Shown here piece by piece: positions 9,281-63,893 of a stretch of DNA of 64,000 nucleotides. The notes beneath the pieces were generated by a model. It saw nothing but the letters and a program-made list of their open reading frames with translations. It did no database searches and was not told the DNA's origin. The translations under genes and the position numbers were made by a program. The stretch is from a virus: positions 80,888 through 144,887 of IMG/VR virus record IMGVR_UViG_3300042691_015370; one strand, 5' to 3'. Numbering within the stretch: position 1 is the stretch's first letter; each line of letters opens with the position of its first letter.

Positions 9281-9366
9281 ATAAACTCCTATATCCAATA
9301 CCGTATCATCACGGTAACATACCAAACGACCTGAAAAAGTTAACGGAGCAAGTCCCACACAAATTG

Positions 9367-9418: not shown

Positions 9419-10762
9419 TCAGACACGCTCACCGTTGTAAACCTTGAGCAGACCCTGATCAGACGAGAAGTTGAGAGTAGTCTCAAGCTTGGTCTGAACC
9501 CGACCCTGCATACCGGGAACTTGGAAGCGAGCATCCTCGACGTATAGCGTCTTGAGACGGCCACCATCGGGGTTGTTGATCTGGACCTCCATGGGCAGTG
9601 GCACTGACGTGTCCGGGCCGATGATCTCGTCAACGGGCTTGCCGGTCACGTAAGCAATCTTCTGCCACAGGTCAGCGGGATCGATTGGCTTAACACCAAT
9701 TGAACCAGCAACGTCAGGGGTATCGTAGTCCATTGCTACGTAGTGAGGGTTACCGAATTCCTCGTCCTGCTCTAGCTGCACTGACCAGTTAACCTCAGCC
9801 GACTGTACACCAGTGAGGCGAACCTCGGTGGGGGTGCCGTCAACGTCAGGCCAGATCACTACGTCGATGTCCTTGGGACGGATAGCGGCGGGCTTGACTG
9901 AAACGCCCTGATGGACGAGGTTGCCACCAGCGGTGCCACCAGTTGGGTTGGTACCATCACCTAGGGTGCCGGGGTTGTAGTTCTCGACGTTGACGTCAGT
10001 TGAACCGTAAACGATACGGATAACGTTGTACTGACCCTCGCCGGTGCCCTGTGGGTACTCGGAAACATTGTTCACCCAGACGGTGCCGTTTGCAGCATCT
10101 GAGTAACCGTCGTTACCGCCGTTGTTGTGGTATAGACGCTTGTAAGCACCATTGCTGGTGTTCACGAGCACGACACACATGGCGTAAACGCTGTCGCCAC
10201 CATCGTTGTAAAGAATGGGGGTGTGCTCTAGCTGAATCTTGTCACCTACTAGACCATTACCACCAGTGTATGCCTCTTCATGGTAGAAGGGCTGACCGGG
10301 GATGTAGTAGATGGAGTCACCACGAAGGGTGAAGCTCTGAGCAGCATTCTGACGTAGACCAAATCGGTACGAAGCCCGCTCTAGGGTCAGGTAAGGAACC
10401 GCAAGACCCTTAACAATGTCGAACTGGTTACGACGGGACTTGAAGGGGGAGATCACGTCAATCGGAACGTGGTTCGCAAAATCGATCTCATTCGTACCAG
10501 CAACGAAGCCGGGGTCGTCAGAGTGAGCGAAAGTAGTGGGGTCCTCATTGGTGAGGATGCACTCAAACTCGGTGGTCATATCGAACGACTCAAGGTCGAA
10601 CGAAAGATCAGGAATGTCTCGCACGGTTGCGACACTGTTCCAGTTACCAAGCTCGTAAATCTTCTCTTCAGGGATATTAAGGTTACCGGGACCACCGCTC
10701 TGAATACGGTCGATCACATAACCATTAATATCATGTAGAATAGCACCTGCTTTAATAGCCAC
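9419..10762 (-). CDS. Major tail (tube) protein
   Basis: 447 aa, GTG start with GGAGG RBS, upstream of chaperone and TMP, followed by a terminator. Beta-rich acidic composition. Confidence 0.85.
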   Translation of the reverse strand: MAIKAGAILHDINGYVIDRIQSGGPGNLNIPEEKIYELGNWNSVATVRDIPDLSFDLESFDMTTEFECILTNEDPTTFAHSDDPGFVAGTNEIDFANHVPIDVISPFKSRRNQFDIVKGLAVPYLTLERASYRFGLRQNAAQSFTLRGDSIYYIPGQPFYHEEAYTGGNGLVGDKIQLEHTPILYNDGGDSVYAMCVVLVNTSNGAYKRLYHNNGGNDGYSDAANGTVWVNNVSEYPQGTGEGQYNVIRIVYGSTDVNVENYNPGTLGDGTNPTGGTAGGNLVHQGVSVKPAAIRPKDIDVVIWPDVDGTPTEVRLTGVQSAEVNWSVQLEQDEEFGNPHYVAMDYDTPDVAGSIGVKPIDPADLWQKIAYVTGKPVDEIIGPDTSVPLPMEVQINNPDGGRLKTLYVEDARFQVPGMQGRVQTKLETTLNFSSDQGLLKVYNGERV

Positions 10763-37337: not shown

Positions 37338-39365
37338 TCAAATAATTGAACAGACGTCCGAATCGCAGAACTTGTCGCCCTCGGCCTCAATACCAACCTT
37401 GTACAGATTGCCAAGAGACTTGTAGGACTTCATCTTCTTTTCGATTTCCTTCTCGGTTAGATCCAGCTTCTCGTATGGCTGCTGAGGATATGTAGCCTCT
37501 TCACCCAATGGAAGGAACGACACACCCTTGAACTGACCATCCTTGGAAGCAAGTAGTGGCAGAAGCTGATCAGCCTCATCCGGCAAGAATGTGATAGTTG
37601 CAGATACCTGATTATCAGCCCAGTAGCGCTGCATCATCGCCGCAAGCTCTGCCTTTTCCCAAATGGTTACGTTACGCTCATCACGAACATCTGGACCCTT
37701 CGTGATAAAAGTAGCGACCACAGTGTTTTCTGGATCTCCCTGTGCAGGTTCGATATCATAGCCAGCCTTCTTTAGATGCTCTACAATAGGGTTGTTGACT
37801 GAATAGCGGACACGCCGAATGTAATGACCTGAAGCTGTGGGCCAGTGAACACCCGGAGTGACACCAGCAACGAGCGACACCGTACCTGAAGGCTTGATGG
37901 AAGTCTTCTTGATCGACTCACGTACAGCCAGCCACTCAGAGTACTTCTGGTCACGATGCTCAATGAACTTGTAGCCCTCATCGGCCCATGAACGAAGCTC
38001 AGCCCAGCCCTTGGTTTCCACGAACTGTGCAAGACCAGAGATGGAACATCCGATACGACGGTTACGGGCCATGACCTCGTTGGAGTCAGCCCACTTGGTC
38101 GGGAGCAGCGTCACAGCCTTGCCGTAGAGGTAAGCGTGCTTGAGCGACTCTCTGAAATCCTCATAATCCGAGTGCTTGCTCGGGAAAACCTCAACGAGAG
38201 TACATAGCTCCTTGTCCTCCAGCGACTGCTCAAGGCAAGGGTTACCGCCAGCTACACGCCAATCCTTGTCGTTACGAGGATCAACAAGGCGACCATGGCT
38301 GCGAGCAAGATCCAACCACATGAACCCCGGCTCACCATTTGTCAGAATACCGTCCACCATGGGACCATAGTTATCCCCTTCGCTGACGAAGACAGAGTTG
38401 TTGGAGTTCCAAGCCCACCCGGTGTCAGGGTCGGTGCGCTCAGCGTTCTCGGGAAGGTTCCAGTTCTTGGCATTTACATAGTCGGTATCAGTTGGGTCAC
38501 CGAAGCAGATTTGGGCTGAACGTCTGGCTCCACCGGCCACTACCGCTTTACCGATCTTGTTCATGATATCCAGAATGTCTCTGGAGGTGATGAGTTCACC
38601 CTCTCTCTTCCCTAGCTGGGAACAAAGGCTCTCATGTAATGTCATCAGTGGACCGGGACCGGAGGCCCTCCCGCCGAATCTTTTCAGTCTACTCCCAGCA
38701 GGACGCACTTCCGAGTAATCAAACTCTACCGTTGGACGATTCTTGAAAAAGTACGACTCTAGTAGTTTTCCGACCGACTCAGCCCACCCTTCACGGTTAT
38801 CGGGCACCACAAAGACCTCTACCTTGTCTGGATTAGGCTCATGTAGCGTTATATTGCCCTCTCCCTTGAGATCGTAGCCTACCCCTACTCCCCACATGGA
38901 CATCTCCATCATGCGTGTAAAGGGCAGTGTGGCTTCCTCAGCGGAATGTGAGGAAAGCTTGGCTGTAGAGAGAAAAGCGCAATTCTGAAGAGCCGACGAA
39001 TGTTGCTCTTCGTGTACGATTGGGCGTCCCATGTGTTGTAGTCCCCGACCGGGTGGCATCCACTTGAAGTGGTACATGCGATCGTAGGCATCTTTGGCTG
39101 AGGCGAGAGCTTTGAAGTCGTTCCATGGGGTGCGGTTACGTTTGCAGTGATCTTTGAGGATACTGTAGTAACCTTCGATGCATCTACGGACTGTTTCGTG
39201 CCAGCGTTCTTTGGTTCCGTCTTCTTTGAGGGCAGAGTATTTGTCTACATAGATGAGTTCTGACAGAGATTGTCCCCCGCCGATAGGAAATCCCCAATCT
39301 GGTGTCTTTTCTGCGTATCCTTCGATGAATGTATCGGGTAGTCGGAATGAGAGCAGATCAGACAT
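37338..39365 (-). CDS. nrdJ: Class II (adenosylcobalamin-dependent) ribonucleotide reductase
   Basis: PPGRG, NCAF, GGNPCLEQSL, ELCTLVE, SIKPSGTVS and C-terminal FCDSDVC; monomeric RTPR type. Confidence 0.93.
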   Translation of the reverse strand: MSDLLSFRLPDTFIEGYAEKTPDWGFPIGGGQSLSELIYVDKYSALKEDGTKERWHETVRRCIEGYYSILKDHCKRNRTPWNDFKALASAKDAYDRMYHFKWMPPGRGLQHMGRPIVHEEQHSSALQNCAFLSTAKLSSHSAEEATLPFTRMMEMSMWGVGVGYDLKGEGNITLHEPNPDKVEVFVVPDNREGWAESVGKLLESYFFKNRPTVEFDYSEVRPAGSRLKRFGGRASGPGPLMTLHESLCSQLGKREGELITSRDILDIMNKIGKAVVAGGARRSAQICFGDPTDTDYVNAKNWNLPENAERTDPDTGWAWNSNNSVFVSEGDNYGPMVDGILTNGEPGFMWLDLARSHGRLVDPRNDKDWRVAGGNPCLEQSLEDKELCTLVEVFPSKHSDYEDFRESLKHAYLYGKAVTLLPTKWADSNEVMARNRRIGCSISGLAQFVETKGWAELRSWADEGYKFIEHRDQKYSEWLAVRESIKKTSIKPSGTVSLVAGVTPGVHWPTASGHYIRRVRYSVNNPIVEHLKKAGYDIEPAQGDPENTVVATFITKGPDVRDERNVTIWEKAELAAMMQRYWADNQVSATITFLPDEADQLLPLLASKDGQFKGVSFLPLGEEATYPQQPYEKLDLTEKEIEKKMKSYKSLGNLYKVGIEAEGDKFCDSDVCSII

Positions 39366-39853: not shown

Positions 39854-40088
39854 CGATCGTTACCTTGTAGCCGATTTCATCAAGAATAAGATTCAACAAA
39901 TCCTGCATCTCCACAGGAGTATCGAACTGACGAGTCCACATCAAGGTGTTATCACTTGTCCTGATGTCCAATACACATCTTTCCCCCGGAAGTAGTGTAT
40001 ATCGATCCCGCCCAATAGTATGAGCGTACATAAAAGCAATAAAATCTGGATTGATCAGAACGTCATCTAACTTAATGAACCTTCTCAT
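39843..40088 (-). CDS. Hypothetical protein
   Basis: ORF coupled to the sigma gene stop. Confidence 0.5.
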   Translation of the reverse strand: MRRFIKLDDVLINPDFIAFMYAHTIGRDRYTLLPGERCVLDIRTSDNTLMWTRQFDTPVEMQDLLNLILDEIGYKVTIDAR

Positions 40089-40816
40089 GCTAAACAATGC
40101 TCCCAAATACTAGAAAGGGCTGAAGTGTGGATCTGGCAGGTACGTGATTCAGTAACACCCATGAGATCGCCAATCTCACGTAAAGAAAGATCTTGTACAT
40201 AGTACAGGCTGAGGACGGTGCGGGATTCGTCGTTCATTTCACCGAACGCGGCGATCAGCTTACCTTTAATCTCAGAATAATCCTCAGTGACAACGTTTTG
40301 ATCTGGAATGATGTCTGAAAGAGAGAACTTAGTTCCATTGATGTTTACAAGGTCATCTAAGTTGGACATAGTGGCAGAAGAGGTTTCCCCGGCGATCTGA
40401 TACACCTCTTCAACATCCCACCCCAAAAGCTGTGCCACTTCTTCTTTGGTTGGTTCTCTGTTGAGTTCGGAAGAAAGTTTCTGTGTGGCCTTTTCGACCT
40501 CTTTGGACTTTGACCTCAGTGATCTGGGTGCCCAGTCTGCTCCACGAAGCTTGTCGAGGATTTCGCCCCTGATTCTGAAAGAGGCATAGGTTTCAAACTT
40601 GTAGCCGAATGAGTTATCAAACTTTGTGATCGCATCAATGAGTCCAAACATTCCGTCTGAGATGAGATCATCAAGCTCAATGTGTTTCGGAAGCTGTTTT
40701 GCAATAGACTTGGCATTCGCAACAACGATAGGCTCATATGCTACCATGATCTTACCCATCAACTCTTTGGATGGGTTTTCTCTATACTGGTTCAGTAGAT
40801 CTGCTCTGTCATTCAT
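40085..40816 (-). CDS. RNA polymerase sigma factor, FliA/WhiG (sigma-28) family
   Basis: DDLISDGMFGLIDAITKFD, KFETYASFRIRGEILDKLR.ADWAPRSLR, LSLREIGDLMGVTESRTCQIH. Confidence 0.92.
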   Translation of the reverse strand: MNDRADLLNQYRENPSKELMGKIMVAYEPIVVANAKSIAKQLPKHIELDDLISDGMFGLIDAITKFDNSFGYKFETYASFRIRGEILDKLRGADWAPRSLRSKSKEVEKATQKLSSELNREPTKEEVAQLLGWDVEEVYQIAGETSSATMSNLDDLVNINGTKFSLSDIIPDQNVVTEDYSEIKGKLIAAFGEMNDESRTVLSLYYVQDLSLREIGDLMGVTESRTCQIHTSALSSIWEHCLA

Positions 40817-41019
40817 TTGACAGTCCATGCCTTGTAAAAGTACCTAGAACTACCATCAAATGGAAAGGCATCACCATTCGGATACATTTCCAAATGGTCT
40901 TTAGTGTAGTCAAGTACACATAGGTCTGCATCATGACGAGAAGCAAAAACGCCTAGGACTGAAAGTCCATCGTCATAGCCACCATCTCGAAAAACTAGAT
41001 AAACTTCTTCACCCTTCAT
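40813..41019 (-). CDS. Hypothetical protein
   Basis: VYLVF...VLGVFAS...A pattern common in small phage proteins. Confidence 0.55.
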   Translation of the reverse strand: MKGEEVYLVFRDGGYDDGLSVLGVFASRHDADLCVLDYTKDHLEMYPNGDAFPFDGSSRYFYKAWTVK

Positions 41020-47733: not shown

Positions 47734-47919
47734 ATGTCGAATCCAGACGATGAATTGTTCTTGTTAGATGAAGAAGATATTGTCGAAAGAAAAGCGCAAT
47801 TAGCGGCAATTCAGAACACTGAAAAGCTGCGACAAGAGCAAGTTGCTAAACAAGATAAGCGTATAGCAAAGAAACAGCAGCAGAAGAAATGGCATAAACC
47901 TAAAAGACGGAGAATCTAA
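47734..47919 (+). CDS. Small hypothetical protein (acidic N-terminus, basic C-terminus)
   Basis: 61 aa, coupled to def. Confidence 0.5.
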   Translation: MSNPDDELFLLDEEDIVERKAQLAAIQNTEKLRQEQVAKQDKRIAKKQQQKKWHKPKRRRI

Positions 47920-48368
47920 TGGGCCTAGTAACGTTAAATGGACCTAAGGGGCGGGGCCTACGACAGCAGACCAACGTAGTGACCGACATCGAAACTCAAG
48001 TCAAGCCTTATCTTGATGAGGCGATCCATATTCTCAAAAGAGAAGATGGCGTCGGTTTAGCTGCTCCACAGATAGGAATTCCTTACGCTTGGTACGTTGA
48101 CAAGCTAAGTGTCCCCTACATTAATCCACAAATTATAGAGTCTTCGGACGAGACATCTGTATTTGAGGGCTGCCTCTCCGTTCCCGAGCGCTGGTACTCC
48201 ACTCAGCGTTATGGTAAAATCACTCTCCGGTTCACCAACCTCGACGGAAACGAAGAGATTCTACGGTTCTCTGGCCTGAGTGCATGGGTGGCTCAGCATG
48301 AGTGTGATCACCTCAGCGGTGTCTTGGTTTGTGACCATGGAGAGCGTGTGTACAAAGGTGAATCATAA
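47919..48368 (+). CDS. def: Peptide deformylase
   Basis: GVGLAAPQIG, EGCLS, QHECDHLSG. Confidence 0.95.
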   Translation: MGLVTLNGPKGRGLRQQTNVVTDIETQVKPYLDEAIHILKREDGVGLAAPQIGIPYAWYVDKLSVPYINPQIIESSDETSVFEGCLSVPERWYSTQRYGKITLRFTNLDGNEEILRFSGLSAWVAQHECDHLSGVLVCDHGERVYKGES

Positions 48369-48880
48369 TGCCGATCAATGGCGGAAAAACATTTATCAAT
48401 ATGGGTCAGTACGTTGTTGATCGTATTCAAACATCTGGACCGGGTGCTCTCAACATACCAGACGAGAAGATCATAGGATGGGGAAATAGGGGAGTATTTG
48501 CTGAAACCTACGAATTCGTTGACCCAAAAATCCCTAGATTCGATTATCCCTACGTCCACTTAAATTTCCTCAACGCACTTGCTAATGAGATGCGTAAAAT
48601 GTACACATCTCGCGATTTTGCATTCGTTGGCACAAACCAACTGATGGAATTCATTTTGGACCTTATGCCAACTAGCGGTGCATATATCCCCAAGCAAGGT
48701 TTTCAGCAACCTCAATACGTTGGCAATGATCTTTTTTTAGGTTTTTATAGAGGCGTAGGACTTTATACCACATCTGATCCGAACCATGGCTCTAAGGTTA
48801 TGACTGTGATGGAGATGAAATTTGATCCACCGTCAAGGAAAGAGTTGGTGCGAGTGCGATTTGAGAGACTTAGCCCTTAG
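48368..48880 (+). CDS. Protein whose N-terminal 40 aa are homologous to the major tail protein N-terminus
   Basis: 21/40 identical, ungapped, to the N-terminus of 9419..10762; the remainder appears unrelated. Confidence 0.7.
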   Translation: MPINGGKTFINMGQYVVDRIQTSGPGALNIPDEKIIGWGNRGVFAETYEFVDPKIPRFDYPYVHLNFLNALANEMRKMYTSRDFAFVGTNQLMEFILDLMPTSGAYIPKQGFQQPQYVGNDLFLGFYRGVGLYTTSDPNHGSKVMTVMEMKFDPPSRKELVRVRFERLSP

Positions 48881-50136
48881 TCTTCTAACAAACTAGAGAC
48901 TAGTTCCGCAATAGGTGAACGCTCGGATCTTGTGAGTGTAACGTGGGCAAACAGATGCTCCCCGGCCAGCGACGAGATTACTGAAGTAATTCCATCATAC
49001 TTTCCCACACGCAGGTTGTCGCGTTGTGCTACATCGTGAGTTAAAACGATCTTGGAGTTACTGCCGATCCGGCTCATGGCTGTCAGAAGTACCATTTTCT
49101 CCAAGTTCTGCGCCTCGTCCACGATGACGTAGGAATCGGTAAGGGTTCGGCCCCTTATGTGCGTAAGAGGAAGCACTTCCAGCAGTTCCCGCTCAACTAC
49201 TTCTTCAATGACGTTTTCGCCACAGATAGACTCCAAAGCATCGAAAACTGCGGCTGCCCATGGCGACATTTTCTCTTCTGCTGTCCCCGGTAGGAAGCCA
49301 AGATCTTGTCCACCAACAGCGTACAATGGCCGAAACACAACCACTCTACGGTGCATTCTGCGCTCCAAAACGGACTCCAGACCCGCAGCTAGAGCAAGAA
49401 CACTCTTGCCAGTACCTGCTGCACCACCAATGGACACAATGCCAATATCAGGGTCCATGAGTGCGTCGAGTGCGAATTTCTGCTCTGCGCTACGTCCACG
49501 AAGATCAAACACCTGTCGATCCTTGACGTGGATTATCTGTTCTCCACGCTTACGTGCAAGTGCAGAGCCATATGGTGATTTCGTGATCAGATATGTGTTT
49601 TCTGGGATGTGTAGAGTGGTTTCGTCAGTCGGAATGCACTCGTAGTCGTATAAGTCATTCAGTTGATTGTCTGAGACAGCGATTTCGGCCCATCCACTCC
49701 AGTTATCGACCATTTTGTCGGGCTGATAGTCGTCTGTTTGCACGCCTGCTACTGAAGCCTTCAGTCGTAGCGGCAAATCCTTGGTCAGTAGGGTGACATC
49801 ATCGGTTTTTGCAAGATTTGACGCTACTGCAAGGATTTTGTTGTCATTAGTGGGTTCTTTGAACGCATTTGGCAGTTCAGAGTCAAAAATGTTGTTTATT
49901 TCGACTCTAATGGACCCATTTGCACTATTTTTGACTTTTTGCGTGATATTTTGACTTTTTCGGCACTTTTCGAGCGTTTTTAGTGCATTTCGGGCTGCAA
50001 ATCCCAGTTCTGGATGGTTTCGCTTGGCTTCTAGCTCGGTTATTACTATCAAAGGTATAACCAAATCCTTATCCTTTAGGCGCTCAAACGCCTTAGGGTC
50101 AGACAATAACACCGACGTATCAAGCACATATACCAT
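48877..50136 (-). CDS. phoH: PIN-PhoH (PhoH2-like) protein
   Basis: PIN: YVLDTSVLL, NDNKIL, TKDLPLR. PhoH: GAAGTGKS, RGRTL, IVDEAQN. Confidence 0.92.
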   Translation of the reverse strand: MVYVLDTSVLLSDPKAFERLKDKDLVIPLIVITELEAKRNHPELGFAARNALKTLEKCRKSQNITQKVKNSANGSIRVEINNIFDSELPNAFKEPTNDNKILAVASNLAKTDDVTLLTKDLPLRLKASVAGVQTDDYQPDKMVDNWSGWAEIAVSDNQLNDLYDYECIPTDETTLHIPENTYLITKSPYGSALARKRGEQIIHVKDRQVFDLRGRSAEQKFALDALMDPDIGIVSIGGAAGTGKSVLALAAGLESVLERRMHRRVVVFRPLYAVGGQDLGFLPGTAEEKMSPWAAAVFDALESICGENVIEEVVERELLEVLPLTHIRGRTLTDSYVIVDEAQNLEKMVLLTAMSRIGSNSKIVLTHDVAQRDNLRVGKYDGITSVISSLAGEHLFAHVTLTRSERSPIAELVSSLLED

Positions 50137-53631: not shown

Positions 53632-54069
53632 TCAGTCTCTCTTCTTCTTTGTTGAGCCAATTACTGTCATTACGGGAGCATTTTGAGGGAAGAATGTCAT
53701 CGGCGTGCCGTCCGGTAGTTCAACAAGCCCATCACCTTGAGCACCGCCATAACCAGCAGGATGCAGCAGCAAAACTGCTCGCCACTCATAGTTGCCATCT
53801 AGGTTCATGTCAGTTCGAATCACGTTGATGTCAGCAACCGCTGCCCAAGGATCAGTCCAAGTATCTGGATCATTGATGTCGCTTGGTCCAATAACCTTTG
53901 GCTGTGCCTGAATCGAAAGAATCTCAGTAAAACCAAAATCCTCTGGTTCAAGAATTACGCCACCAACAGTATAAGGTCCCTCAACTCCAGTGACCTCAAC
54001 GATTTTGATCTGATTACCACTGGAATCACGCAGATCTGATGCAAGAATTGTATTGAATGTAATAGCCAT
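53632..54069 (-). CDS. Hypothetical protein
   Basis: 145 aa with AGGAG RBS. Confidence 0.6.
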   Translation of the reverse strand: MAITFNTILASDLRDSSGNQIKIVEVTGVEGPYTVGGVILEPEDFGFTEILSIQAQPKVIGPSDINDPDTWTDPWAAVADINVIRTDMNLDGNYEWRAVLLLHPAGYGGAQGDGLVELPDGTPMTFFPQNAPVMTVIGSTKKKRD

Positions 54070-54203
54070 ATCAAACTCCTAAAGCTTTCGGTTGTTGTAG
54101 AGCCAGATGATCCCAGCAATAGCAGCAATAGTCACAATCACATCACTGACAACATCCAACCAAAGTACGAGCATAACCATACAACGACAGCAAAACTGTT
54201 GAT

Positions 54204-54413
54204 TCAATCCTCGTACTCAACAACAGTGTCGAAGCCACCATCTACTTGCCGAACCTCAATGATGGTTGCCTCAAACTCTTCCCCGTCCATCTCAACAGTC
54301 ACGATCTTGCCCACCTGTTCCTTCAGCACCTTGCGCAGAATCTTGTCCCGAGCATGCTGAGGTAGTAAAGGGATGTGTGGTAGGTCTAATGGGAAGTGCG
54401 TTTTGATTCTCAT
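54204..54413 (-). CDS. Small hypothetical protein
   Basis: C-terminal part of a track ORF looks protein-like; start uncertain. Confidence 0.4.
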   Translation of the reverse strand: MRIKTHFPLDLPHIPLLPQHARDKILRKVLKEQVGKIVTVEMDGEEFEATIIEVRQVDGGFDTVVEYED

Positions 54414-54694
54414 ACACCATGTTACGGGCCAACATGCAAGAAATTGCATATATGCAAGCAATAATGTGAAAAATTGCAGTGATATTGCAGGATTCACACC
54501 AAAATTGCGACAAACAAAGAGTTGGAATGCAATACTTTGCCAGTGGGCAGCAGGCAATACCGCCCAGTCCCTAGTAAACACGGGGTTCGGCCCCGGGGGG
54601 TGGTGCGACGGGTCGATCCGGGGTACATTGGTGTTGTCCCCGCCGCCGAGGTGAGCGGGGGGGGGGAGCGGCAAGGCTCCCCGAACATAGGCAC

Positions 54695-54723
54695 TTGACT
54701 GCTACGCTTAGGCGTGTCATGCT
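54695..54723 (+). promoter_or_regulatory. Sigma70/SigA-type promoter (TTGACT-17bp-CATGCT, extended -10 TG)
   Basis: Near-consensus hexamers with 17-bp spacing at the start of the plus-strand high-GC region. Confidence 0.65.
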
Positions 54724-54729
54724 CGTGTC

Positions 54730-55420
54730 GTACAAGGGAGTATCGGTCCCGCCTAACAGGCCGCACCGTTAACCATCGGCAGTGCTAGTTCTGAACAGCT
54801 AGCGTGTCAGTCCACCGGGCATCCCTCATAGCCAACCTCGCTATCCTGCGATTCTGGTCCTGCCGTGGCAGGTGCATAGTCTCCCCACCTAGAGTGGCGA
54901 CGAGTGCGAACCGGACCCCAACGTGGTGCAAGCTAGATAGTCGCCCCTGTGACGAGAGGTATTGGCACGCTTCCCCTAGCGTGAAGTCTGTCCCCATGCG
55001 ACAGGTATGGACTGATGCTAGGTACGCCGTAAAGGAAGTGTGAGCTAGTGCGACGGGGAGCCTACCTAGGTAGTGCGCCACAATAGGAGCTAGCGTCATC
55101 GGTTAGGGACGGCCCGGTAAGAACGGGGTGCTACTGAGAACGGTGTGGGTATGTGTCGGACCCACGGGTGACTGGACAGTGCAACGTCAGGGACGGCCAC
55201 GGACGACTGAGTGCGAAGCCTGCCCGGAAACCAACCTAAGTGTAAGAGCGCCTAAAGCTTACCGCAACCCTAACCTACGCCCAGAGTCGAGAGACTAGGG
55301 CTTAGCAAGTGTGCCCGCTGGGCCGACCGTGCAACTGCACTCCAGAACGCTTGCTACGCCGGTCCTCCTAAGGCTCGACGTCTGCTCTGGGCGCCATGCG
55401 ACAGAGGTTCGCAGTAGCTA
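54730..55420 (+). ncRNA. Candidate large structured non-coding RNA
   Basis: No credible ORF; several nested long-range helices found by eye (see findings); directly downstream of the promoter. Confidence 0.6.
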
Positions 55421-55437
55421 GCACATGGAGGACCATC

Positions 55438-55842
55438 GTGTCCGAGAACACCGCAATCACCCCCGAGATGGCGCAGGCCGAGATCGACCGGCGTGCCGCC
55501 AACAAGGCCGCCAAGGCAGCGGCCCGCAAGCAGGGTGCCAAGAAGTTCACCCGCATCGCCGCCACCGACCCGGTGCTCATGGCCCTGTCGGGTGAGCAGT
55601 TGGACCTGCTCGTCAAGCCCGCCGAGGCCCAGCCCGAGGTGCCCACCATCAAGACCGCCCCGGCGTGGAACGAGCCGGGTGTGCGGGGTGGCGACCCGGT
55701 GAAGCGCAACCGGGCGCTGCTGGCCGACAAGCTGGTGGGTGCCGACTCCAAGGGCACCCCGGCGTGGTGGGACGCCTACCGCTCGACCAAGGACATGACC
55801 TTGGACGAGTTGGGTGTGGCGCTCGGGTTCATCACCGCCTGA
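55438..55842 (+). CDS. Hypothetical early protein
   Basis: GTG start with GGAGG RBS; strong GC3 codon bias. Confidence 0.7.
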   Translation: MSENTAITPEMAQAEIDRRAANKAAKAAARKQGAKKFTRIAATDPVLMALSGEQLDLLVKPAEAQPEVPTIKTAPAWNEPGVRGGDPVKRNRALLADKLVGADSKGTPAWWDAYRSTKDMTLDELGVALGFITA

Positions 55843-55849
55843 GATGCCA

Positions 55850-55875
55850 AGTCCTGAGCATGACTGAAACTGCTC
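55850..55875 (+). repeat. Pseudoknot motif copy 1
   Basis: AGTC-CTGAGCAT-GACT-GAAAC-TGCTC. Confidence 0.75.
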
Positions 55876-55941
55876 GCCCCTACACCTAGGGTGTGGTGCT
55901 TCGATGCACGCTAGGGGGCCACCTGCGAGAAAGGTACATGC

Positions 55942-56139
55942 ATGAGCAAGCCCGTCCCGCCACCGCCACCCACACGGCGCAACGTGTTCTCCCCGACCGA
56001 CCGTGACCCCAAGGTCACCCGTACCCGCACGGCCTACACCGTGGACCGTACCAGCCGCCCCGGTGTGGTGACCCGCTCGCACACCGAGGGCAAGCTGACC
56101 CGGCGTGAGTTGGAGCGCATGATGAAGTACCGGGGCTGA
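55942..56139 (+). CDS. Hypothetical basic protein
   Basis: 65 aa, GC3 bias, RBS. Confidence 0.6.
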   Translation: MSKPVPPPPPTRRNVFSPTDRDPKVTRTRTAYTVDRTSRPGVVTRSHTEGKLTRRELERMMKYRG

Positions 56140-56173
56140 GATCACACACCGGGCAAACGTCCATAAGACCAGC

Positions 56174-56530
56174 TTGGAGGCTGAGTTGAGCAAGCGCACC
56201 TACAACTACATGGCACCCCGTGCCCTGCGAGCGAACATGCGATCCCGCTCCAAGACCGAAGATCCGATGCACGATCCCCGCAAGCACGAGCGTCGGGTGG
56301 AGCAGATCCCGTCCGAGTACCGCACCCTGCCCGGATCACCGCAGCACATCGTGTCGAACATGCCCGCAGTGTCGAGTGTGCTGGGCATGATGGGTGAGAA
56401 GCAGGCCCGCTACCGGGTCGAGAAGGACAACAAGCGCACCGAGTACGTCGGTCGCACCTCCAAGCTCCCCGAGTGTGGGCCGAGCGCCCGCAAGTCCGAC
56501 AACCACCGAGCCGCAGCAGACGGGAAGTGA
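56174..56530 (+). CDS. Hypothetical basic protein
   Basis: GC3 bias; true start may be TTG at 56186 after GGAGG. Confidence 0.6.
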   Translation: MEAELSKRTYNYMAPRALRANMRSRSKTEDPMHDPRKHERRVEQIPSEYRTLPGSPQHIVSNMPAVSSVLGMMGEKQARYRVEKDNKRTEYVGRTSKLPECGPSARKSDNHRAAADGK

Positions 56531-56532
56531 CC

Positions 56533-56736
56533 ATGAACGAGCGCAACCGACGAACCACCAAGCCACGCCCAGCACGACCCACCATCGTCTACCGCATCGG
56601 TGGCATCAGGTGGGTGCCATGCACGCAGACCGAGGCCGAGTGGTACTACCACGCCGCCGAGGGTCAGGTGTACCCCAACGTGTGCTACCCAGTCATGCAC
56701 AAGGGGCACGCTGTCATGCCAGTCCGTCCACTCTAG
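56533..56736 (+). CDS. Hypothetical protein
   Basis: Start MNERN; GC3 bias. Confidence 0.55.
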   Translation: MNERNRRTTKPRPARPTIVYRIGGIRWVPCTQTEAEWYYHAAEGQVYPNVCYPVMHKGHAVMPVRPL

Positions 56737-56751
56737 CGAGAGGCTAGTCCC

Positions 56752-57054
56752 ATGACCGAGACAGTCAACGGTCGTCCCGTCAAGAACTTCGTCGCCATGT
56801 TCGTCCCGCTCAGCATCTGTGCCTTGCCCGAGGAAATGGGCCTCAAGGGCACGGGTGTGCAGATCCCCGGCTTCACCCATGAGGGCATGACCGTGGAGCC
56901 ACACCTCGTGACCGAGGTGATGGAGGGTCACAACTGCGTGACCGTGGAACCGGGTCGCAAGGCCCACATCTTCGCAACCCGTGCAGAGGCGGAAGCCTTC
57001 GTAGAAGCACAGACAGTCCGCAAGTCGGGCTGGATGGTCCTTCCCCGTACCTAG
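56752..57054 (+). CDS. Hypothetical protein
   Basis: 100 aa with GAGG RBS. Confidence 0.6.
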   Translation: MTETVNGRPVKNFVAMFVPLSICALPEEMGLKGTGVQIPGFTHEGMTVEPHLVTEVMEGHNCVTVEPGRKAHIFATRAEAEAFVEAQTVRKSGWMVLPRT

Positions 57055-57068
57055 GAGGTACACACATC

Positions 57069-57218
57069 ATGACCAACCCCACCAAGACCAAGCACGTCGT
57101 CCGTACCAAGACCCACATGCAGGCGTTCAGCGACGAGCGTGACCGCCGCATCGTGGACTGGGTGCTGACCGCCGAGTCCGAGGACTGGGAAGCCTCCCAG
57201 TCCCAGCCCATCGACTGA
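57069..57218 (+). CDS. Small hypothetical protein (49 aa, not in track)
   Basis: AGGAGG RBS; MTNPTKTKHVVRTK... Confidence 0.6.
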   Translation: MTNPTKTKHVVRTKTHMQAFSDERDRRIVDWVLTAESEDWEASQSQPID

Positions 57219-57279
57219 CCACAGCTACCTTGCCAGTGTGCAAGGGGTGTGGTGAGAGGAACGAGATGTTCACTACACA

Positions 57280-57545
57280 GTCCTGAGCAGGACACGAAAC
57301 TGACTCAACGATGCCACACTGTACCGGGTCGTCCGGGCAGGAGATGGACGAGCGGCTGGCCGCACGCACAGCGTTTACATGAATGGTCCTGAGTAAGACT
57401 TTAAACATCTGCTCACATAGCCCTAGCACACAGTTGCAGAGGGAATGGCACTGAGCAATGCCACACAAATTGCTCCCGCAACGTAGGTGCTACGGCAACT
57501 TGGAGTGTGAGTGATAGCTGGTCCTGAGTATGACGTAAACTGCTC
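57280..57545 (+). repeat. Cluster of four pseudoknot motif copies (57280, 57386, 57446, 57521)
   Basis: GTCCTGAGCAGGACACGAAACTGACTC; GTCCTGAGTAAGACTTTAAACATCTGCTC; TGGCACTGAGCAATGCCACACAAATTGCTC; GTCCTGAGTATGACGTAAACTGCTC. Confidence 0.75.
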
Positions 57546-57604
57546 CGCTAGGGTGACGTGTTATATCACCCCCGAGGCTACGGACGGTAAGCCGTGGCAA
57601 ACGT

Positions 57605-57699
57605 TTGTAAAGGTAGCCACCCAAGGGGCCTTAGTCAAGGGTGTAGCCAAACCGCTACTAGCAGGCTGGTGTCGTAAGTCAGCCCTACCTTTACAACCA
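57605..57699 (+). ncRNA. tRNA-sized multibranch element ending in CCA
   Basis: TTGTAAAGGTAG pairs with CTACCTTTACAA, encloses hairpins, and is followed by CCA. Confidence 0.45.
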
Positions 57700-57767
57700 C
57701 ACCATCGTATGGTGTGTCTAGTAAGCGTAACAAGGAATCGGTAGCGTCCCCGCACCCTCCGGGTGTG

Positions 57768-57862
57768 AAGAAGGGTGGGCTGATCCCTGACCGGAGTTCA
57801 CGCAGCAACCGTGCTGGTGCCGGGGTGAAGGACAGCGGGCTAGGTTCGACTCCAGCCTTCTT
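57768..57862 (+). ncRNA. tRNA-like element (acceptor-like stem plus T-loop)
   Basis: AAGAAGG/CCTTCTT stem and GGTTCGACTCC T-arm; no canonical anticodon arm. Confidence 0.45.
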
Positions 57863-57908
57863 GTTGCGCTTATTAGCTACACCAACCAAGCCCATGAGAG
57901 GGATTTGC

Positions 57909-58190
57909 ATGCCCATGCCCGAGATGCCCAACCGCCGAGACAGTGCCTTCCGTAGCCTGTCACCCACCGAGTCCTGCACGCAGAAGGTCCACACCACGGG
58001 TGTGCAGTGGGTCTACAAGTTCGACAACGGGTGGGGCGCATCCATCATCACCGATGGCTCCGGGTGTCAGATGGGGCTGTTTGAGGTGGCTCCCATCGAC
58101 CCCAAGAACGGGTTGGATGACATGGGTGTGCGGGGCTACCTGACCGCAGCCGATGTCATCGACTACCTGCGAGACATCGCCACCCGCTGA
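57909..58190 (+). CDS. Hypothetical protein
   Basis: YKFDNGWGASII...GLFEVA...GVRGYLT, a pattern seen in small phage proteins. Confidence 0.7.
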   Translation: MPMPEMPNRRDSAFRSLSPTESCTQKVHTTGVQWVYKFDNGWGASIITDGSGCQMGLFEVAPIDPKNGLDDMGVRGYLTAADVIDYLRDIATR

Positions 58191-58348
58191 ACGCAAGAAC
58201 GTCAGTCTGGCTGGATTGATCCCCGGACCTGACAACGTGTGGGTCTAGCACTAGGTAAGAATTGTTGGCCTCGTTTAGAGTGTTTGAGCCGCAATCGCCC
58301 ACACAACCATCGCAAGTTCCCAACCCGCCTTTAAGGAGGCACCCAGCA

Positions 58349-58609
58349 ATGACCACCATCACCACCCTGACCACCTACACCGCCATCTTCGCCGTGGGCG
58401 ACCACAAGCTGCCCATCAAGGTGGCCGCTGCCAACCGAGGTGAGGCGACCAACCTCGCCCGCAAGATCCTGCGGGAGCGCATCGGTGACCCCACCTACGG
58501 CAACTTCCCGATCTCGGTCGTGGAGCAGCCCGTGAAGGTGGGTGCCCGTGCCATCGCCACCAACCCCACGGTGGTGAAGCGCAAGGTGCGTACCCGCACC
58601 CAGAGCTAG
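58349..58609 (+). CDS. Hypothetical protein
   Basis: AAGGAGG RBS, GC3 bias. Confidence 0.65.
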   Translation: MTTITTLTTYTAIFAVGDHKLPIKVAAANRGEATNLARKILRERIGDPTYGNFPISVVEQPVKVGARAIATNPTVVKRKVRTRTQS

Positions 58610-58656
58610 TTCCCTAGCTAACCAACCCAACCAACCACGACGCCACAGGAGGCAAC

Positions 58657-58884
58657 GTGAGCAACACTCCCATCCGTACCGTGACGGTCAAGCCCCTCGC
58701 TCTCAAGCAGGAGCAGGGCCGTCGCCGCAACAACAAGTCCCGCCCCGCAGGCGAGAAGGTCCGCACCAAGGCGTACTACCTCGCTGCCTTCAGCAAGTCC
58801 GAGATGGATGCGCTGGTGGCCGGTGAGACTGTGACCAAGACCTACAAGTCCGGTCGCACCGAGAGCTACGTGCTCGCCAAGTGA
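58657..58884 (+). CDS. Hypothetical basic protein
   Basis: AGGAGG RBS, GTG start. Confidence 0.65.
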   Translation: MSNTPIRTVTVKPLALKQEQGRRRNNKSRPAGEKVRTKAYYLAAFSKSEMDALVAGETVTKTYKSGRTESYVLAK

Positions 58885-58889
58885 GTTAC

Positions 58890-58916
58890 CGTCCTGAGCA
58901 TGACGTTAAACTACTC
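58890..58916 (+). repeat. Pseudoknot motif copy 6
   Basis: CGTC-CTGAGCAT-GACG-TTAAAC-TACTC. Confidence 0.7.
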
Positions 58917-59056
58917 AACGGTCTAACATAGCCACCTAAACATGAGTCCAAATGCGGCAGTTTGGGAAAGCAAAGTATGTTCGGCCCCCGGTGGTGAGCA
59001 AGCAATCCGGCGCTAAGCTATTAGCGATAGTGCGACTAGTGACCACAAATAGCATG

Positions 59057-59143
59057 AACGGTTAGGTAAGTAGGCAGACGTGAATGCGCTTGGGGGTGTT
59101 ACAGCCGTCAAGAAGCGGGTTAAACTCCCGCCTAACCGTTTCA
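59057..59143 (+). ncRNA. Degenerate tRNA-like element
   Basis: AACGGTTAG/CTAACCGTT stem and GCGGG-TTAAACT-CCCGC T-arm; irregular D and anticodon arms. Confidence 0.45.
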
Positions 59144-59144
59144 T

Positions 59145-59218
59145 GCGGGTAAGCGTAGGCTGTGCCGGTCAGATTCCAAACCTGTACCGCTGGGGTTCGA
59201 TTCCCTGTACCCGTGCCA
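59145..59218 (+). tRNA. tRNA, probably Trp(CCA), with atypical D and anticodon arms
   Basis: Acceptor GCGGGTA/TACCCGT, discriminator G, encoded CCA, T-loop GGTTCGATTCC, anticodon loop TTCCAAA. Confidence 0.6.
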
Positions 59219-59242
59219 CACGACACCCTTTAAGGAGGGATG

Positions 59243-59401
59243 ATGAGCAAGCCCAAGAGCAACGTCCCTCCCACACCGAGGGCAGACCCCCGCATGTGGC
59301 GGGTCAACCAGCGTGCAGTCAAGCACGCCATCCAGCCCAAGAAGAACGACCGCAACGCTTGCCGCAAGAACAAGGGCAGGCGCAACCGAGAGGACTACTG
59401 A
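59243..59401 (+). CDS. Small basic protein (52 aa, not in track)
   Basis: AAGGAGG RBS; MSKPKSNVPPTPRADPRMWR... Confidence 0.55.
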   Translation: MSKPKSNVPPTPRADPRMWRVNQRAVKHAIQPKKNDRNACRKNKGRRNREDY

Positions 59402-59595
59402 TGAGCAAGCCGATGGGCTGGGCCACCACCACGACAAAGTTCATCCACCGCAATGGCGTGGTGGAACTTCGCTCCGACGACCCCACTGCCACCGTGTGTA
59501 GTGAGTGTGGACGTGGCTGGGACGACAGCGTGTCCACCGCAACGACGCCCGCACCCGCTGGCCGGTGTCCCTTTGAGTACGAGCACGGAAGGTAA
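59401..59595 (+). CDS. Small Cys-containing protein
   Basis: CSECGRGWDD...GRCPFEYEH. Confidence 0.6.
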   Translation: MSKPMGWATTTTKFIHRNGVVELRSDDPTATVCSECGRGWDDSVSTATTPAPAGRCPFEYEHGR

Positions 59596-59598
59596 GTC

Positions 59599-60144
59599 AT
59601 GGCTGACATCTTCGCAACCGCAGACCTACACCTTGGGCATGACTTCGTAGGCTGTGGTATCCGTGGCTTCGACACGGTGCAGGACCACGACGACTACATC
59701 ACCCATGTGTGGAACAGCACCATCCGTCCCCGTGACGAGGTGTGGTTCCTTGGTGACTTCCGCATGGGACAGTGCTCACAGGAGCGTGCCCGTAGCATCT
59801 TCCACTCACTGCATGGGATCAAGCACATGGTGCGTGGCAACCATGACCCCAAGTGGGTGACTGAGCTAGGGTGGAGCAGCGTGCATGACCTTGTGCGCCG
59901 CAAGCTGAACGGTCACACCTACATCATGTGCCACTACCCGATGCTGACGTGGCCCAATGCACACCACGGATCGTGGCACCTGCACGGACACTCGCACGGG
60001 AACCTGAACGCACCTGAGTCCACACGTATGGACGTGGGCATCGACTGCCACCCTGAGCGTCGGCCTTTCTCCATTGACGAGATCGAAGCCATCCTGTCCA
60101 CCCGTACCTACGACTTCGTAGACCACCACACCGACGACGACTAG
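59599..60144 (+). CDS. Calcineurin-like phosphoesterase
   Basis: ADLHLGH, FLGDF, RGNHD, CHYP, LHGHSH. Confidence 0.9.
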   Translation: MADIFATADLHLGHDFVGCGIRGFDTVQDHDDYITHVWNSTIRPRDEVWFLGDFRMGQCSQERARSIFHSLHGIKHMVRGNHDPKWVTELGWSSVHDLVRRKLNGHTYIMCHYPMLTWPNAHHGSWHLHGHSHGNLNAPESTRMDVGIDCHPERRPFSIDEIEAILSTRTYDFVDHHTDDD

Positions 60145-60152
60145 GAGTCATC

Positions 60153-60458
60153 ATGTTCTGGCTAGCCTCAGTGTCCAGCAACAGCAGCGACGACGGCTTG
60201 CAGGGTCCGTACAACACCCTGACCGAAGCGGCCGAGGATCGCATCGTCGCTGCACAGGTAGTGGTGAACGACAACGGCCACATCGTCAAGGACGACACAT
60301 GGTTGTGGGACTGGGAGCGCAACACTGGCTCTGCGTCCTACGCATGGAGAATGCTCCACGGTGAGGGCGAGTGGGTCGCTCGTCACAACAAGTTCGGCAC
60401 AGGCTGGCAGAGCCACAACCCTGTGCTCCCGCCCGGACACTACAAGGATGGCCGATGA
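60153..60458 (+). CDS. Hypothetical protein
   Basis: AGGAG RBS. Confidence 0.55.
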   Translation: MFWLASVSSNSSDDGLQGPYNTLTEAAEDRIVAAQVVVNDNGHIVKDDTWLWDWERNTGSASYAWRMLHGEGEWVARHNKFGTGWQSHNPVLPPGHYKDGR

Positions 60459-60640
60459 GGATTGAGTACGTGTCATCCGTAAGCGAGGGCATGGTGCGGT
60501 TCTACCGTTCGGATGATGGCTACGAGGGTTTCCATTTCATGTCCCTCTCGTCATTCAGGGAGTACCTCGCACAAGAACGAGCAAGTCTCGACAAGCTAGA
60601 GACAGAGCTAGCTGAACTCATGGAGGACGAAGATGTTTGA
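60455..60640 (+). CDS. Hypothetical protein
   Basis: ATGA overlap. Confidence 0.5.
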   Translation: MRIEYVSSVSEGMVRFYRSDDGYEGFHFMSLSSFREYLAQERASLDKLETELAELMEDEDV

Positions 60641-60935
60641 TTGCCTGCACATCGACAACCACAACGTCCCGCTCTGCGGGGCCGCTGGCTTCGACCGTGA
60701 CATGGTTGTGGCCGAGGCGACCTTCACCGAGAATCCCTACGGGGACCGTCGGTGCTGGGAGTGTGCCAGCATCATCGGAGTAGACCTGACTCCTACCCTG
60801 CCCACCATCGACCCGGAGGATGACTACGAGGGTGACGACACTGCCGAGGCTCTGCGGCATGACCGTCTAAGCTCAGAGTTCTGTGGATTCTGTGCCACCC
60901 GCCACCACCCCAACCAGCCCTGTCAGGAGGACTGA
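60633..60935 (+). CDS. Hypothetical Cys/His-rich protein
   Basis: CWEC and CGFC...HH..QPC. Confidence 0.55.
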   Translation: MFDCLHIDNHNVPLCGAAGFDRDMVVAEATFTENPYGDRRCWECASIIGVDLTPTLPTIDPEDDYEGDDTAEALRHDRLSSEFCGFCATRHHPNQPCQED

Positions 60936-60936
60936 T

Positions 60937-61122
60937 ATGTGGATCACCATGGGCACCAAGTTCAGCGACCCCGCTGATGAGAGCATCGTCTGGGAAGTCA
61001 ACCCCGGCTCGGTGTTCGATGACGACACCTTCCAAGCAGAACTGATCGCCGGTCCTGAGGGCAGGCTCGGTGAGATGACGCTGTTCACCCGTGCAGACAT
61101 CGAAGCGGGACTGTTGCCATGA
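60937..61122 (+). CDS. Hypothetical protein
   Basis: AGGAGG RBS. Confidence 0.55.
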   Translation: MWITMGTKFSDPADESIVWEVNPGSVFDDDTFQAELIAGPEGRLGEMTLFTRADIEAGLLP

Positions 61123-61313
61123 GTGAGCGTCAGTTCACAGACCGTCAGTTGATCGTCAAGCTGCTTGACGAGAACCTCAAAGCCCTACACCCGAGTCGTG
61201 GCAAGGAGAACGCACGACTGGTGCGCCTTGTGTGTGAGGAAATCGGTGCCTGTGAGGACGATTTCTTGGCACGACACATCAAGCGAGACAAGAAGGCATG
61301 GGGCCTTGACTGA
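61119..61313 (+). CDS. Hypothetical protein
   Basis: ATGA overlap. Confidence 0.5.
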   Translation: MSERQFTDRQLIVKLLDENLKALHPSRGKENARLVRLVCEEIGACEDDFLARHIKRDKKAWGLD

Positions 61314-61478
61314 GGACAAGGTGTTCTTCTACGTCGTGCGGCACTTGGGCAAGGACGGACATGAGGTGTATGTGGGACCGTTCGACTACAAGTTCCAAGC
61401 ACGCAAGTACCTGCTAGACGAAACTGGTTCACCGAACGGTGGGCTAGTGATCCTCGTACTGACACCCAAGGACAGCAA

Positions 61479-61748
61479 GTGAGAACACACGTCGAAGTGC
61501 GGCCCACGATGCAGCAGACCATCGACATCACAAGGGCACAGGATCACGCATGGGGTGTGGGTTCATGGGGTGCTGGTGAGTTCTGGGGCATCATCCTGAA
61601 GAATCTGGATGGCAAGTTCGATGTCCAGATCAACAACAACATGGGCATCCATCCCTTGATGGGTCAGACGAGTACCTTGGAGAATGCCAAAGCTATGATC
61701 CGCAAGCATATTGAGTTCGCTGTCCACTGCACACCTGAGAGAGACTGA
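61479..61748 (+). CDS. Hypothetical protein
   Basis: GTGA overlap. Confidence 0.5.
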   Translation: MRTHVEVRPTMQQTIDITRAQDHAWGVGSWGAGEFWGIILKNLDGKFDVQINNNMGIHPLMGQTSTLENAKAMIRKHIEFAVHCTPERD

Positions 61749-62333
61749 CATTCCTACCGCAACTGTCGGTGTCGTAGACGTAGAGCTACGAGAGATGAGC
61801 AAGGGCCACTACGTTGTGGTGGTCGCACACAGCAAGTTCGGCTTGCTGTACGAGATCCAGATTGACGAGTTCGACAAAGACTCACTGGTGCAGGGCATCG
61901 AAATCGAATGCATCGACCGGATCAACAACGTGTCGCTAGACATCAACACCTTGGAGGATGTGTGAGTTCTGGGGGATACTGGTCGGTTGACTGGTATTGG
62001 CAGAGAGTCAAGGCAATGCGAGAGGCGGCAAACCTTTCGTGCCCTGACTTGCCCGACCATTGGGAGCCGATGGAACGACTCGCTTACCGTAGTGGGTGGC
62101 AGGACGCAATGAAGAAGGTCAAGGAGGCAGGCAAGTGAGTGACGTGCGATACATGCGGGTGGTTGGTCAGTGTGACAACACCACCTTCACCAAGCGACTG
62201 CTGACCTGTGGCACTGATGAGCAGACGCTGAACCTGCTCAACGACAGTTACCCCGGTGTCCACTTCTTTCAGGTGCTGGAGTGTGCAGAGTTGGGTGACC
62301 ACATCATCAAGTTCGTAGACTGAGGGAGAACAC

Positions 62334-62561
62334 ATGGCCGGTACCCTGAACACGATGCCCTTCTACGTCCAGCGTGAGTTGCTGGGCCGAGACTGGCACG
62401 AGTGCGTGTCTCAGCGTGACCTGAGGATGGTGTCGAACTACCGCAAGGTTGAGAACCGACGCACCCGTGCGCAGACCAAGCAGGCACTGCGACAGGAGCG
62501 TTACGACGATTTGCCCACACACTCCACGGCCCGAGGTTCGGCGCTGTGGCTGGCCTACTGA
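62334..62561 (+). CDS. Hypothetical basic protein
   Basis: GGGAG RBS. Confidence 0.55.
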   Translation: MAGTLNTMPFYVQRELLGRDWHECVSQRDLRMVSNYRKVENRRTRAQTKQALRQERYDDLPTHSTARGSALWLAY

Positions 62562-62571
62562 GAGGTTGACG

Positions 62572-63057
62572 ATGGATCTGATCGACTACATCTACGACGA
62601 GTGCCAGCGTCAGCATGTTGGAAACTACGGCGACTTTGCTACTGGCTGGCAGATCGCCAGAGATCGTGAAAGTGTCGGTTCTTGGCAGGAATTCGCAATC
62701 TTTGTCATGAGGATTGCAAGGGCAGTGGATTACGCCAACCTTTACCGTCCCGGTGAGGGTGAGAATCTGCGTACTTCACACGTTGGCTTCATGCACGGTG
62801 GCTCTGCTGCCCCTGCTGGCGAGGTTCGTGAACGGTTCGACCGCTGGTGCGAGTTCACTCACGAGTGGTTGCGAGATTGGGGGCCAATGGTTGATGGCTT
62901 GCAGCCCCCATACGAGATTGACTCTCTCATCAAGCAGTTGCTCGACATCCACCCGTGGGCCGATGGCAATGGTCGCACTGCAAGTATCCTTCGCAACTGG
63001 ATGCTGAGACAACTCGATGATCCCGAGCCGCTACCGTTTTACTACGGAGATACCTGA
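62572..63057 (+). CDS. Fic/Doc-family protein
   Basis: HPWADGNGRTAS motif. Confidence 0.85.
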   Translation: MDLIDYIYDECQRQHVGNYGDFATGWQIARDRESVGSWQEFAIFVMRIARAVDYANLYRPGEGENLRTSHVGFMHGGSAAPAGEVRERFDRWCEFTHEWLRDWGPMVDGLQPPYEIDSLIKQLLDIHPWADGNGRTASILRNWMLRQLDDPEPLPFYYGDT

Positions 63058-63449
63058 TGATCCTCGTGATTGATGACGAGCGCACGTTCGCTCAAGACCC
63101 AAACCTTGTTGGTTACGTTGATTGGGTGTATGCCCGCACGTCCGACGAGGGAATCGTTGCCATCGTCAAGGCATGGACCAACTACGCCCTGCACTATGGG
63201 AACATGGTCGATCTGTACCTTGACCACGATCTTGGTGAGGGTGACACGATCATGCCGGTCGTAGACTTCCTGTATGTGGCCGGAAGGCAGTCAGGTATCA
63301 TGAATCCATCTGACATGGTACGCCCACCGCAGTTCATCAGCAACATCTTCATTCATTCGCAGAACCCTACTGCGGGTGATACGATCATCCCCCTGCTCTC
63401 CCCCCTTTACAGTAACGTGCAGCGCATCCCGCTGCCCAAGCTTGTGTGA
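63057..63449 (+). CDS. Stand-alone receiver-like domain (cyclic-phosphate-processing receiver type)
   Basis: LVIDDER, LYLDHDLG, IHSQNP. Confidence 0.75.
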   Translation: MILVIDDERTFAQDPNLVGYVDWVYARTSDEGIVAIVKAWTNYALHYGNMVDLYLDHDLGEGDTIMPVVDFLYVAGRQSGIMNPSDMVRPPQFISNIFIHSQNPTAGDTIIPLLSPLYSNVQRIPLPKLV

Positions 63450-63456
63450 GGTAACC

Positions 63457-63687
63457 ATGCAACTAACCGTTGATCTCTACATCACGGACCCGTTTGACGA
63501 AGTGCAGACTCCGTGGCAGATAGAGTGGAACTATGGCAGTAAGATCGCTGCCGTCCGGTGTCGTCAGCCCTACATGGAGTGGCCGGTCGAGTTGGAGATT
63601 TCTCCCTTTGCTACGCTCGCTGGTGTGAAGCAGACGCTGACGCTGGTGTTGCGTACCCATGTTCGTGACCTGACAGGAATCGGTTGA
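63457..63687 (+). CDS. Hypothetical protein
   Basis: GAGG RBS. Confidence 0.5.
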   Translation: MQLTVDLYITDPFDEVQTPWQIEWNYGSKIAAVRCRQPYMEWPVELEISPFATLAGVKQTLTLVLRTHVRDLTGIG

Positions 63688-63893
63688 TGACTCCACGCAC
63701 TGAGAGTGTGATGATCCGTTGCTTGCAAACCTTCATGGCTTTGGTCATCGTAGGCTTTGTTGGCAACTTCGTGTACGAGGCGCACAAGATGTTCACCAAG
63801 GGTGACAACGTTGGTGGATGGATGGCTCTAGGAGTGGCGGCAGTGTTTGTCGCCATCGGAGTGCTGGGTTGGCTGGCACAGGAGGATGACTAA
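63684..63893 (+). CDS. Small membrane protein
   Basis: Two hydrophobic segments. Confidence 0.55.
   Translation: MMTPRTESVMIRCLQTFMALVIVGFVGNFVYEAHKMFTKGDNVGGWMALGVAAVFVAIGVLGWLAQEDD

Follow-up and report, generated by a model that had tools for sequence, protein, structure and literature searches.

A short open frame among the metabolic genes of an uncultured phage of about 145 kb begins with a diverged copy of the N-terminal segment of a tail tube protein and then runs into sequence with no detectable relatives. This frame, ORF170 (48368..48880, plus strand; 170 codons, ATG to TAG), has the look of a genuine gene, chimeric and restricted to this phage. Its codons 1-46 (48368..48505) correspond to codons 1-46 of the phage's tube gene (10625..10762, minus strand), a segment strongly conserved across the tube family and referred to here as the arm; for its codons 47-170 (48506..48877), sequence and structure searches gave neither relatives nor a fold. 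The window, meaning the whole stretch of DNA that was analyzed, is the final 64 kb of a 144,887-bp IMG/VR viral contig estimated by CheckV to be 89% complete. Our tentative reading, to which we give somewhat less than an even chance, is that ORF170 would display a linking element of the tube, either to tube subunits or to some partner that recognizes it.

The partner in this comparison is the 447-aa protein encoded at 9419..10762 (minus strand), which the sequence-only reading had taken for the major tail protein. Structure prediction agrees: its modeled fold places it among the tail tube proteins of the T5 pb6/P74-26 type, with two tube domains in tandem. With the family alignment as input, AF2 gave a model (pLDDT 69, pTM 0.70) whose top Foldseek matches were the P74-26 tube (8ed0_A, 4.6e-6) and T5 pb6 (5ngj, 1.1e-5). 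This model aligned over 424-479 columns to 8ed0_A, 5ngj, 9iny, and 8hrg, and DT57C was also among the full-length matches. Single-domain tubes matched over about 150-170 columns only, and Hcp and the SPR tube domain each matched half of the model. The location of the gene, upstream of those for a 288-aa acidic protein and the tape measure protein (more than 2703 aa), is typical of a tube gene. The 288-aa protein (8492-9358, minus strand) is very acidic and sits between the tube and tape measure genes, the place of the tail assembly chaperone; it matched no family and is unusually long for such a chaperone.

No Pfam or PHROG family was found for the tube protein, although its own family numbers more than 1358 metagenomic proteins. 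The sole phage relative in GenBank, QBQ74873.1 of Caudovirales GX15bay (43% identical; contig L001, 20001-21218), is labeled an "epimerase," almost certainly a mis-annotation. In GX15bay, the "epimerase" gene comes just ahead of one for a 285-aa protein, then a small gene and one for a "minor tail protein" of 2098 aa, an order shared with the window.

The tube, 288-aa, and tape measure genes belong to a long structural module on the minus strand of the window, which also includes a frame of 314 aa, probably encoding the capsid protein, a number of small genes, and two tail-fibre-like proteins (794 and 847 aa). After this module comes a region of nucleotide metabolism and accessory genes, in the order class II ribonucleotide reductase, sigma-70-family factor, dCMP deaminase, ThyX, peptide deformylase, and ORF170. 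A convergent PIN-PhoH gene lies beyond ORF170, and then a gene for a peptidoglycan-binding protein. The sigma factor is full length, with regions 2, 3, and 4 (40085-40828, minus strand), and the ribonucleotide reductase is of the B12-dependent class (37338-39365, minus strand). The sigma factor is WhiG-like, a hint that the host may be an actinobacterium. The GC content is 0.56-0.61 at 54000-64000 of the window, the end region of the contig, and about 0.45-0.53 elsewhere in the window.

ORF170 has the features expected of a translated gene. The peptide deformylase gene directly 5′ of it (47919..48368, plus strand; PF01327, E 2.7e-29) overlaps its start by 1 base, the deformylase stop and the ORF170 ATG sharing the sequence TAATG, and a Shine-Dalgarno site, AAAGGTGA, is found at 48354-48361, 7 bases 5′ of the start. 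At the other end, the frame fills the gap up to the convergent PhoH gene (48877..50136, minus strand; PF13638 and PF02562) and continues 4 bases into it; because the two stops overlap by these 4 bases, there is no room for a terminator between the converging genes. Scans for promoters and terminators returned nothing exceeding shuffled sequence. The product of this neighboring gene is a PhoH protein with a fused N-terminal PIN domain (PIN_4 plus PhoH).

Codon usage, scored as log-odds trained on the other long ORFs of the same contig, averages 0.23 per codon over the whole of ORF170 and 0.21 over codons 47-170 alone. The contig's long ORFs score 0.28 ± 0.16, windows taken in frame from real genes 0.32 ± 0.15, and wrong frames -0.62, with just 0.4% of the wrong-frame windows attaining the ORF170 score. 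An identical protein, with the same flanking gene order, is present in four other assemblies, and the DNA is 100% identical in the three that were fetched; the arrangement is therefore not an assembly artifact.

We think it very unlikely that ORF170 is not a gene as drawn, that is, either untranslated or translated from a start downstream of the arm. The evidence for translation is computational, and there are internal Met codons at positions 12 and 75. However, the Shine-Dalgarno site and the TAATG coupling both point to Met1, and so the copied segment begins at the true start, as the sequence-only reading had assumed, rather than lying upstream of it. A start at Met12 would still retain the best-conserved block of the arm, residues 15-35, and a start at Met75 is disfavored since it would leave unexplained why codon positions 1 and 2 of the arm are conserved while position 3 is random. 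That pattern is itself a signature of coding, and it stands against an untranslated frame together with the gene-like codon usage, which wrong frames fall far short of.

The match between the two N termini, noticed from the letters alone, is well supported by several methods. The alignment is gapless from Met1, with 21/40 residues identical (22/46 if the GTG start of the tube gene is read as Met), and the shared motif lies at an equal offset from Met1 in both proteins. BLASTP gave an E value of 3e-11, and the Smith-Waterman score was 101, compared to 29.5 ± 4.5 for 2000 shuffles. When a 28-member family profile was compared with ORF170 by hhalign, columns 1-46 only were aligned, at 48% identity and a probability of 97.4%; an HMM of 120 family members matched residues 1-45 only (39.5 bits). 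The rest of ORF170 had been judged unrelated to the tube, and so it proves: the Smith-Waterman score of residues 47-170 against the tube protein was at chance level, reached by 955 of 2000 shuffles, and a BLAST alignment apparently extending to residue 92 was not significant by itself. The separation of the two genes, put earlier at about 38 kb, is 37.6 kb, on opposite strands, with ORF170 following dCMP deaminase, ThyX, and deformylase genes.

Two other accounts of the chimera were considered and rejected. The 3′ part of ORF170 shows no frame-shifted homology to the tube gene in other frames, and the idea that ORF170 derives from the first tube domain in its entirety lacks support, since Smith-Waterman, HMM, and hhalign comparisons find nothing past residue 46. 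The regions 5′ of the two start codons have no similarity to each other. With no similarity past residue 46, no tube beta-sandwich domain is detectable, and ORF170 thus falls outside the tube family; from the sequence comparisons, it derives from a single segment of the tube protein.

What does this segment do in the tube? Residues 1-46 are among the best conserved of the family, with the motifs DRIQ, GPG, NIPEEK, and YELGN, and despite this high conservation, the monomer model gives residues 1-9 and 20-51 a pLDDT below 50. The low-confidence stretch is bordered by model strands, at 10-22 and 47-59. If the canonical topology is used to map these positions, the copied segment would comprise the tube N-terminus, strands beta1 and beta2, and Loop1, the long beta2-beta3 hairpin. 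Tube monomers of P74-26, SPP1, YSD1, and lambda have a flexible, autoinhibitory N-terminus and Loop1, which in the assembled tubes form intra- and inter-ring contacts (PMC10034513). As a separate matter of composition, GC3 is 0.39 over codons 1-46 of the tube gene (10625-10762, minus strand), compared to 0.62 for the remainder of the gene and an average of 0.67 for the arms of relatives.

The copy is old or foreign. Identity between ORF170 and the phage's own tube arm is 28/46 (61%) at codon position 1, 31/46 (67%) at position 2, and 10/46 (22%) at position 3; where ORF170 and tube arms have the same residue, 5-10 of about 22 codons are the same. Each tube arm sampled shares 45-54% identity with the ORF170 arm, and some foreign arms (25/46) are slightly nearer to it than the phage's own is (21-22/46). 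These sequence comparisons speak against a recent duplication within this genome; the whole contig carries only the two arm copies. They also bear on the suspicion, raised with the original observation, that the shared segment might be a neutral recombination scar: since silent sites are saturated, the similarity is not a fresh scar. Since the donor tube gene is unsampled, all of this saturation could have arisen in the tube lineage. The GC content of the ORF170 arm (0.435) is close to that of the phage's own tube arm (0.442), with a mean of 0.544 for the arms of relatives, a weak hint of an origin within this phage's lineage.

Divergence along the arm is strikingly uneven. As means over 129 unique family arms, residues 15-35 of ORF170 are as close to the family as its members are to each other (0.72, compared to 0.74 for family pairs), whereas residues 1-14 (0.24, compared to 0.63) and residues 36-50 (0.19, compared to 0.73) are not. 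We refer to residues 15-35, YVVDRIQTSGPGALNIPDEKI (48410..48472, plus strand), as the core block. Of 21 columns conserved at 90% or more, 15 are retained in ORF170, 11 of them in one unbroken run, for which the permutation P of 0.026 is modest and comes from a test framed post hoc, with the data already seen. Of the conserved segment DRIQ..G....NIP.EK.YELGN, ORF170 keeps D18, R19, I20, Q21, G24, N29, I30, P31, E33, K34, G39, and N40. The near-invariant YEL (Y36, E37, and L38) is replaced; with this and the residues beyond it lost, the copy is not a faithful Loop1.

A core at 0.72 next to flanks at about 0.2 is not the pattern expected under uniform neutral decay. Taken with the intact frame, this uneven divergence favors selection on the ORF170 frame and on the core block, although it falls short of proof because the donor is unsampled, ORF170 has no homologues, and the three fetched contigs show no polymorphism. 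Selection on residues 15-35, the mapping of this block to beta2/Loop1, and any binding by ORF170 are all things that we infer.

The strongest competing explanation is that ORF170 is a by-product of illegitimate recombination: a piece from the 5′ end of a tube gene would have inserted between deformylase and PhoH, its frame running on into sequence of unrelated origin. Translation may then occur, but the arm would have no arm-related function and its similarity would be residual. While we consider this doubtful, such a functionless chimera is nearly as likely as the tube-linking reading. Mosaic orphan genes are abundant in phage genomes, and much about ORF170 would fit one. Its GC content is 42.7%, compared to 48-50% in the adjacent genes, and its stop lies inside the 3′ end of the PhoH gene.

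ORF170 is also a singleton. A phmmer search of 1.84 billion representatives returned only ORF170 itself and an 82-aa fragment, the latter a frameshifted tube gene, and a word search of 5.8 billion sequences returned ORF170 itself only. Among 35 related viral contigs, of which eight are 90% complete or better, ORF170 matches one site per contig, the N-terminus of the tube gene, and there is no second copy of the arm; it is therefore not a recurrent solution. Relatives whose PhoH is 67% identical have neither ORF170 nor the deformylase gene at the site, and synteny around PhoH and the deformylase gene is not conserved in relatives. All short arm-bearing proteins trace to truncated or frameshifted tube genes. 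Two relatives of the tube gene from other metagenomes (L004, 433-681, and P0138) are interrupted some 50-100 codons in, by frameshift or mis-assembly, and the short ORFs that result could pass for genes of the arm alone.

The C-terminal part is likewise compatible with a by-product in having no predicted fold. ORF170 had no match in Pfam, PHROGs, PADLOC (E ≤ 0.1), or GenBank phages. A sequence search of the PDB gave two chance-level matches (E above 1), neither of them DSAD1; a weak match to A511 Gp105 (E 1.3) was taken as chance. The ESM Atlas, searched with the whole protein and with residues 47-170, gave only sub-threshold, unnamed viral clusters. An AF2 single-sequence model reached a pLDDT of 33, and with this unreliable model, Foldseek found no tube protein and nothing at E ≤ 0.001; secondary-structure elements fall at similar positions in the ORF170 and tube models. 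Complex prediction with the full tube protein scored 0.00, a value obtained without controls that counts neither way on binding.

Several observations are hard to reconcile with a by-product, however. The core block has stayed at the full level of the family, while equally conserved flanks have decayed to about 20%. A 170-codon open frame with gene-like codon usage is unlikely under neutral drift after such divergence; in simulations of substitution-only drift at 0.16 per site, 170 codons remained free of stops in 7.5% of cases. In addition, the coupling of the start to the deformylase gene is exact, and a good Shine-Dalgarno site precedes it.

By homology, the first 46 or so codons of ORF170 derive from the 5′ end of a tube gene belonging to the phage's own tube family, and they are joined to 124 residues of other origin. 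From there, one can envision the tube-linking reading as follows. Since ORF170 keeps a piece of the linking element, it would interact with a tube subunit or with the socket that receives the element; we imagine that the 21-residue core block docks at the arm/loop site of a neighboring subunit. Once docked, ORF170 might modulate tube polymerization, by capping, delaying, or poisoning it, or might anchor its novel C-terminal part to the tube protein. A more specific version, rather unlikely in our estimation from sequence, would make ORF170 a loop-only mimic of the tube that plugs the tube socket, controlling or poisoning polymerization for the phage's own timing or against co-infecting relatives, or that engages a host sensor reading the loop.

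A host sensor also figures in the possibility that ORF170 is an anti-defense decoy, made with the early or metabolic genes, showing the tube loop to a sensor of unassembled tube protein, and occupying that sensor without triggering it. We consider this improbable. Tube protein in its monomeric form is known to trigger immunity, and DSAD1 is a known phage inhibitor of DSR2; Loop1 of the phage SPR tube (Q34-K57) inserts into the DSR2 sensor domain and is needed for activation (PMC10981675). A place among metabolic genes, outside the late structural module, would also suit a decoy. However, the core of the SPR tube suffices for DSR2 binding, and a tube with Loop1 deleted still binds (PMC10981675). 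With the core binding the sensor and Loop1 triggering it, a decoy of the DSR2 type fits least well; an inhibitor consisting of the loop only could even act as a trigger, and ORF170 has no PADLOC match.

If the arm of ORF170 is functional, this would be a natural case of a phage reusing the element that links the subunits of a virion protein, and not its fold. It could then serve as a probe for the control of polymerization in long tail tubes and as a candidate for how phages hide or exploit a tube loop read by sensors such as DSR2. Apart from function, ORF170 documents one route to a new phage gene, in which a 5′ fragment of a structural gene is joined to novel sequence, and the analysis identifies a large family of tail tube proteins (more than 1358) for which Pfam and PHROGs have no model.

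Among known systems, the closest to the parent are T5 pb6 (5ngj) and P74-26 gp93 (8ed0), whose fold the 447-aa protein matches over its full length; ORF170 carries a copy of the matching N-terminal segment of that parent. Unlike these proteins, ORF170 has no detectable tube beta-sandwich, is encoded outside the structural module, and has lost YEL. In its architecture, ORF170 resembles the anchor modules of tail fibres and tailspikes, in which a short conserved N-terminus that docks at a fixed site on the tail is joined to an unrelated C-terminus. Those modules, though, are encoded by tail-module genes, recur, and have known positions in the virion, whereas ORF170 is a singleton among metabolic genes. 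The system of SPR Loop1, DSR2, and DSAD1 offers a third comparison (PMC10981675): there, what a host sensor reads can be a short loop of the tube, and phage proteins compete at that sensor. It differs in that the tube core binds and Loop1 activates, whereas ORF170 carries a piece of the loop without the core.
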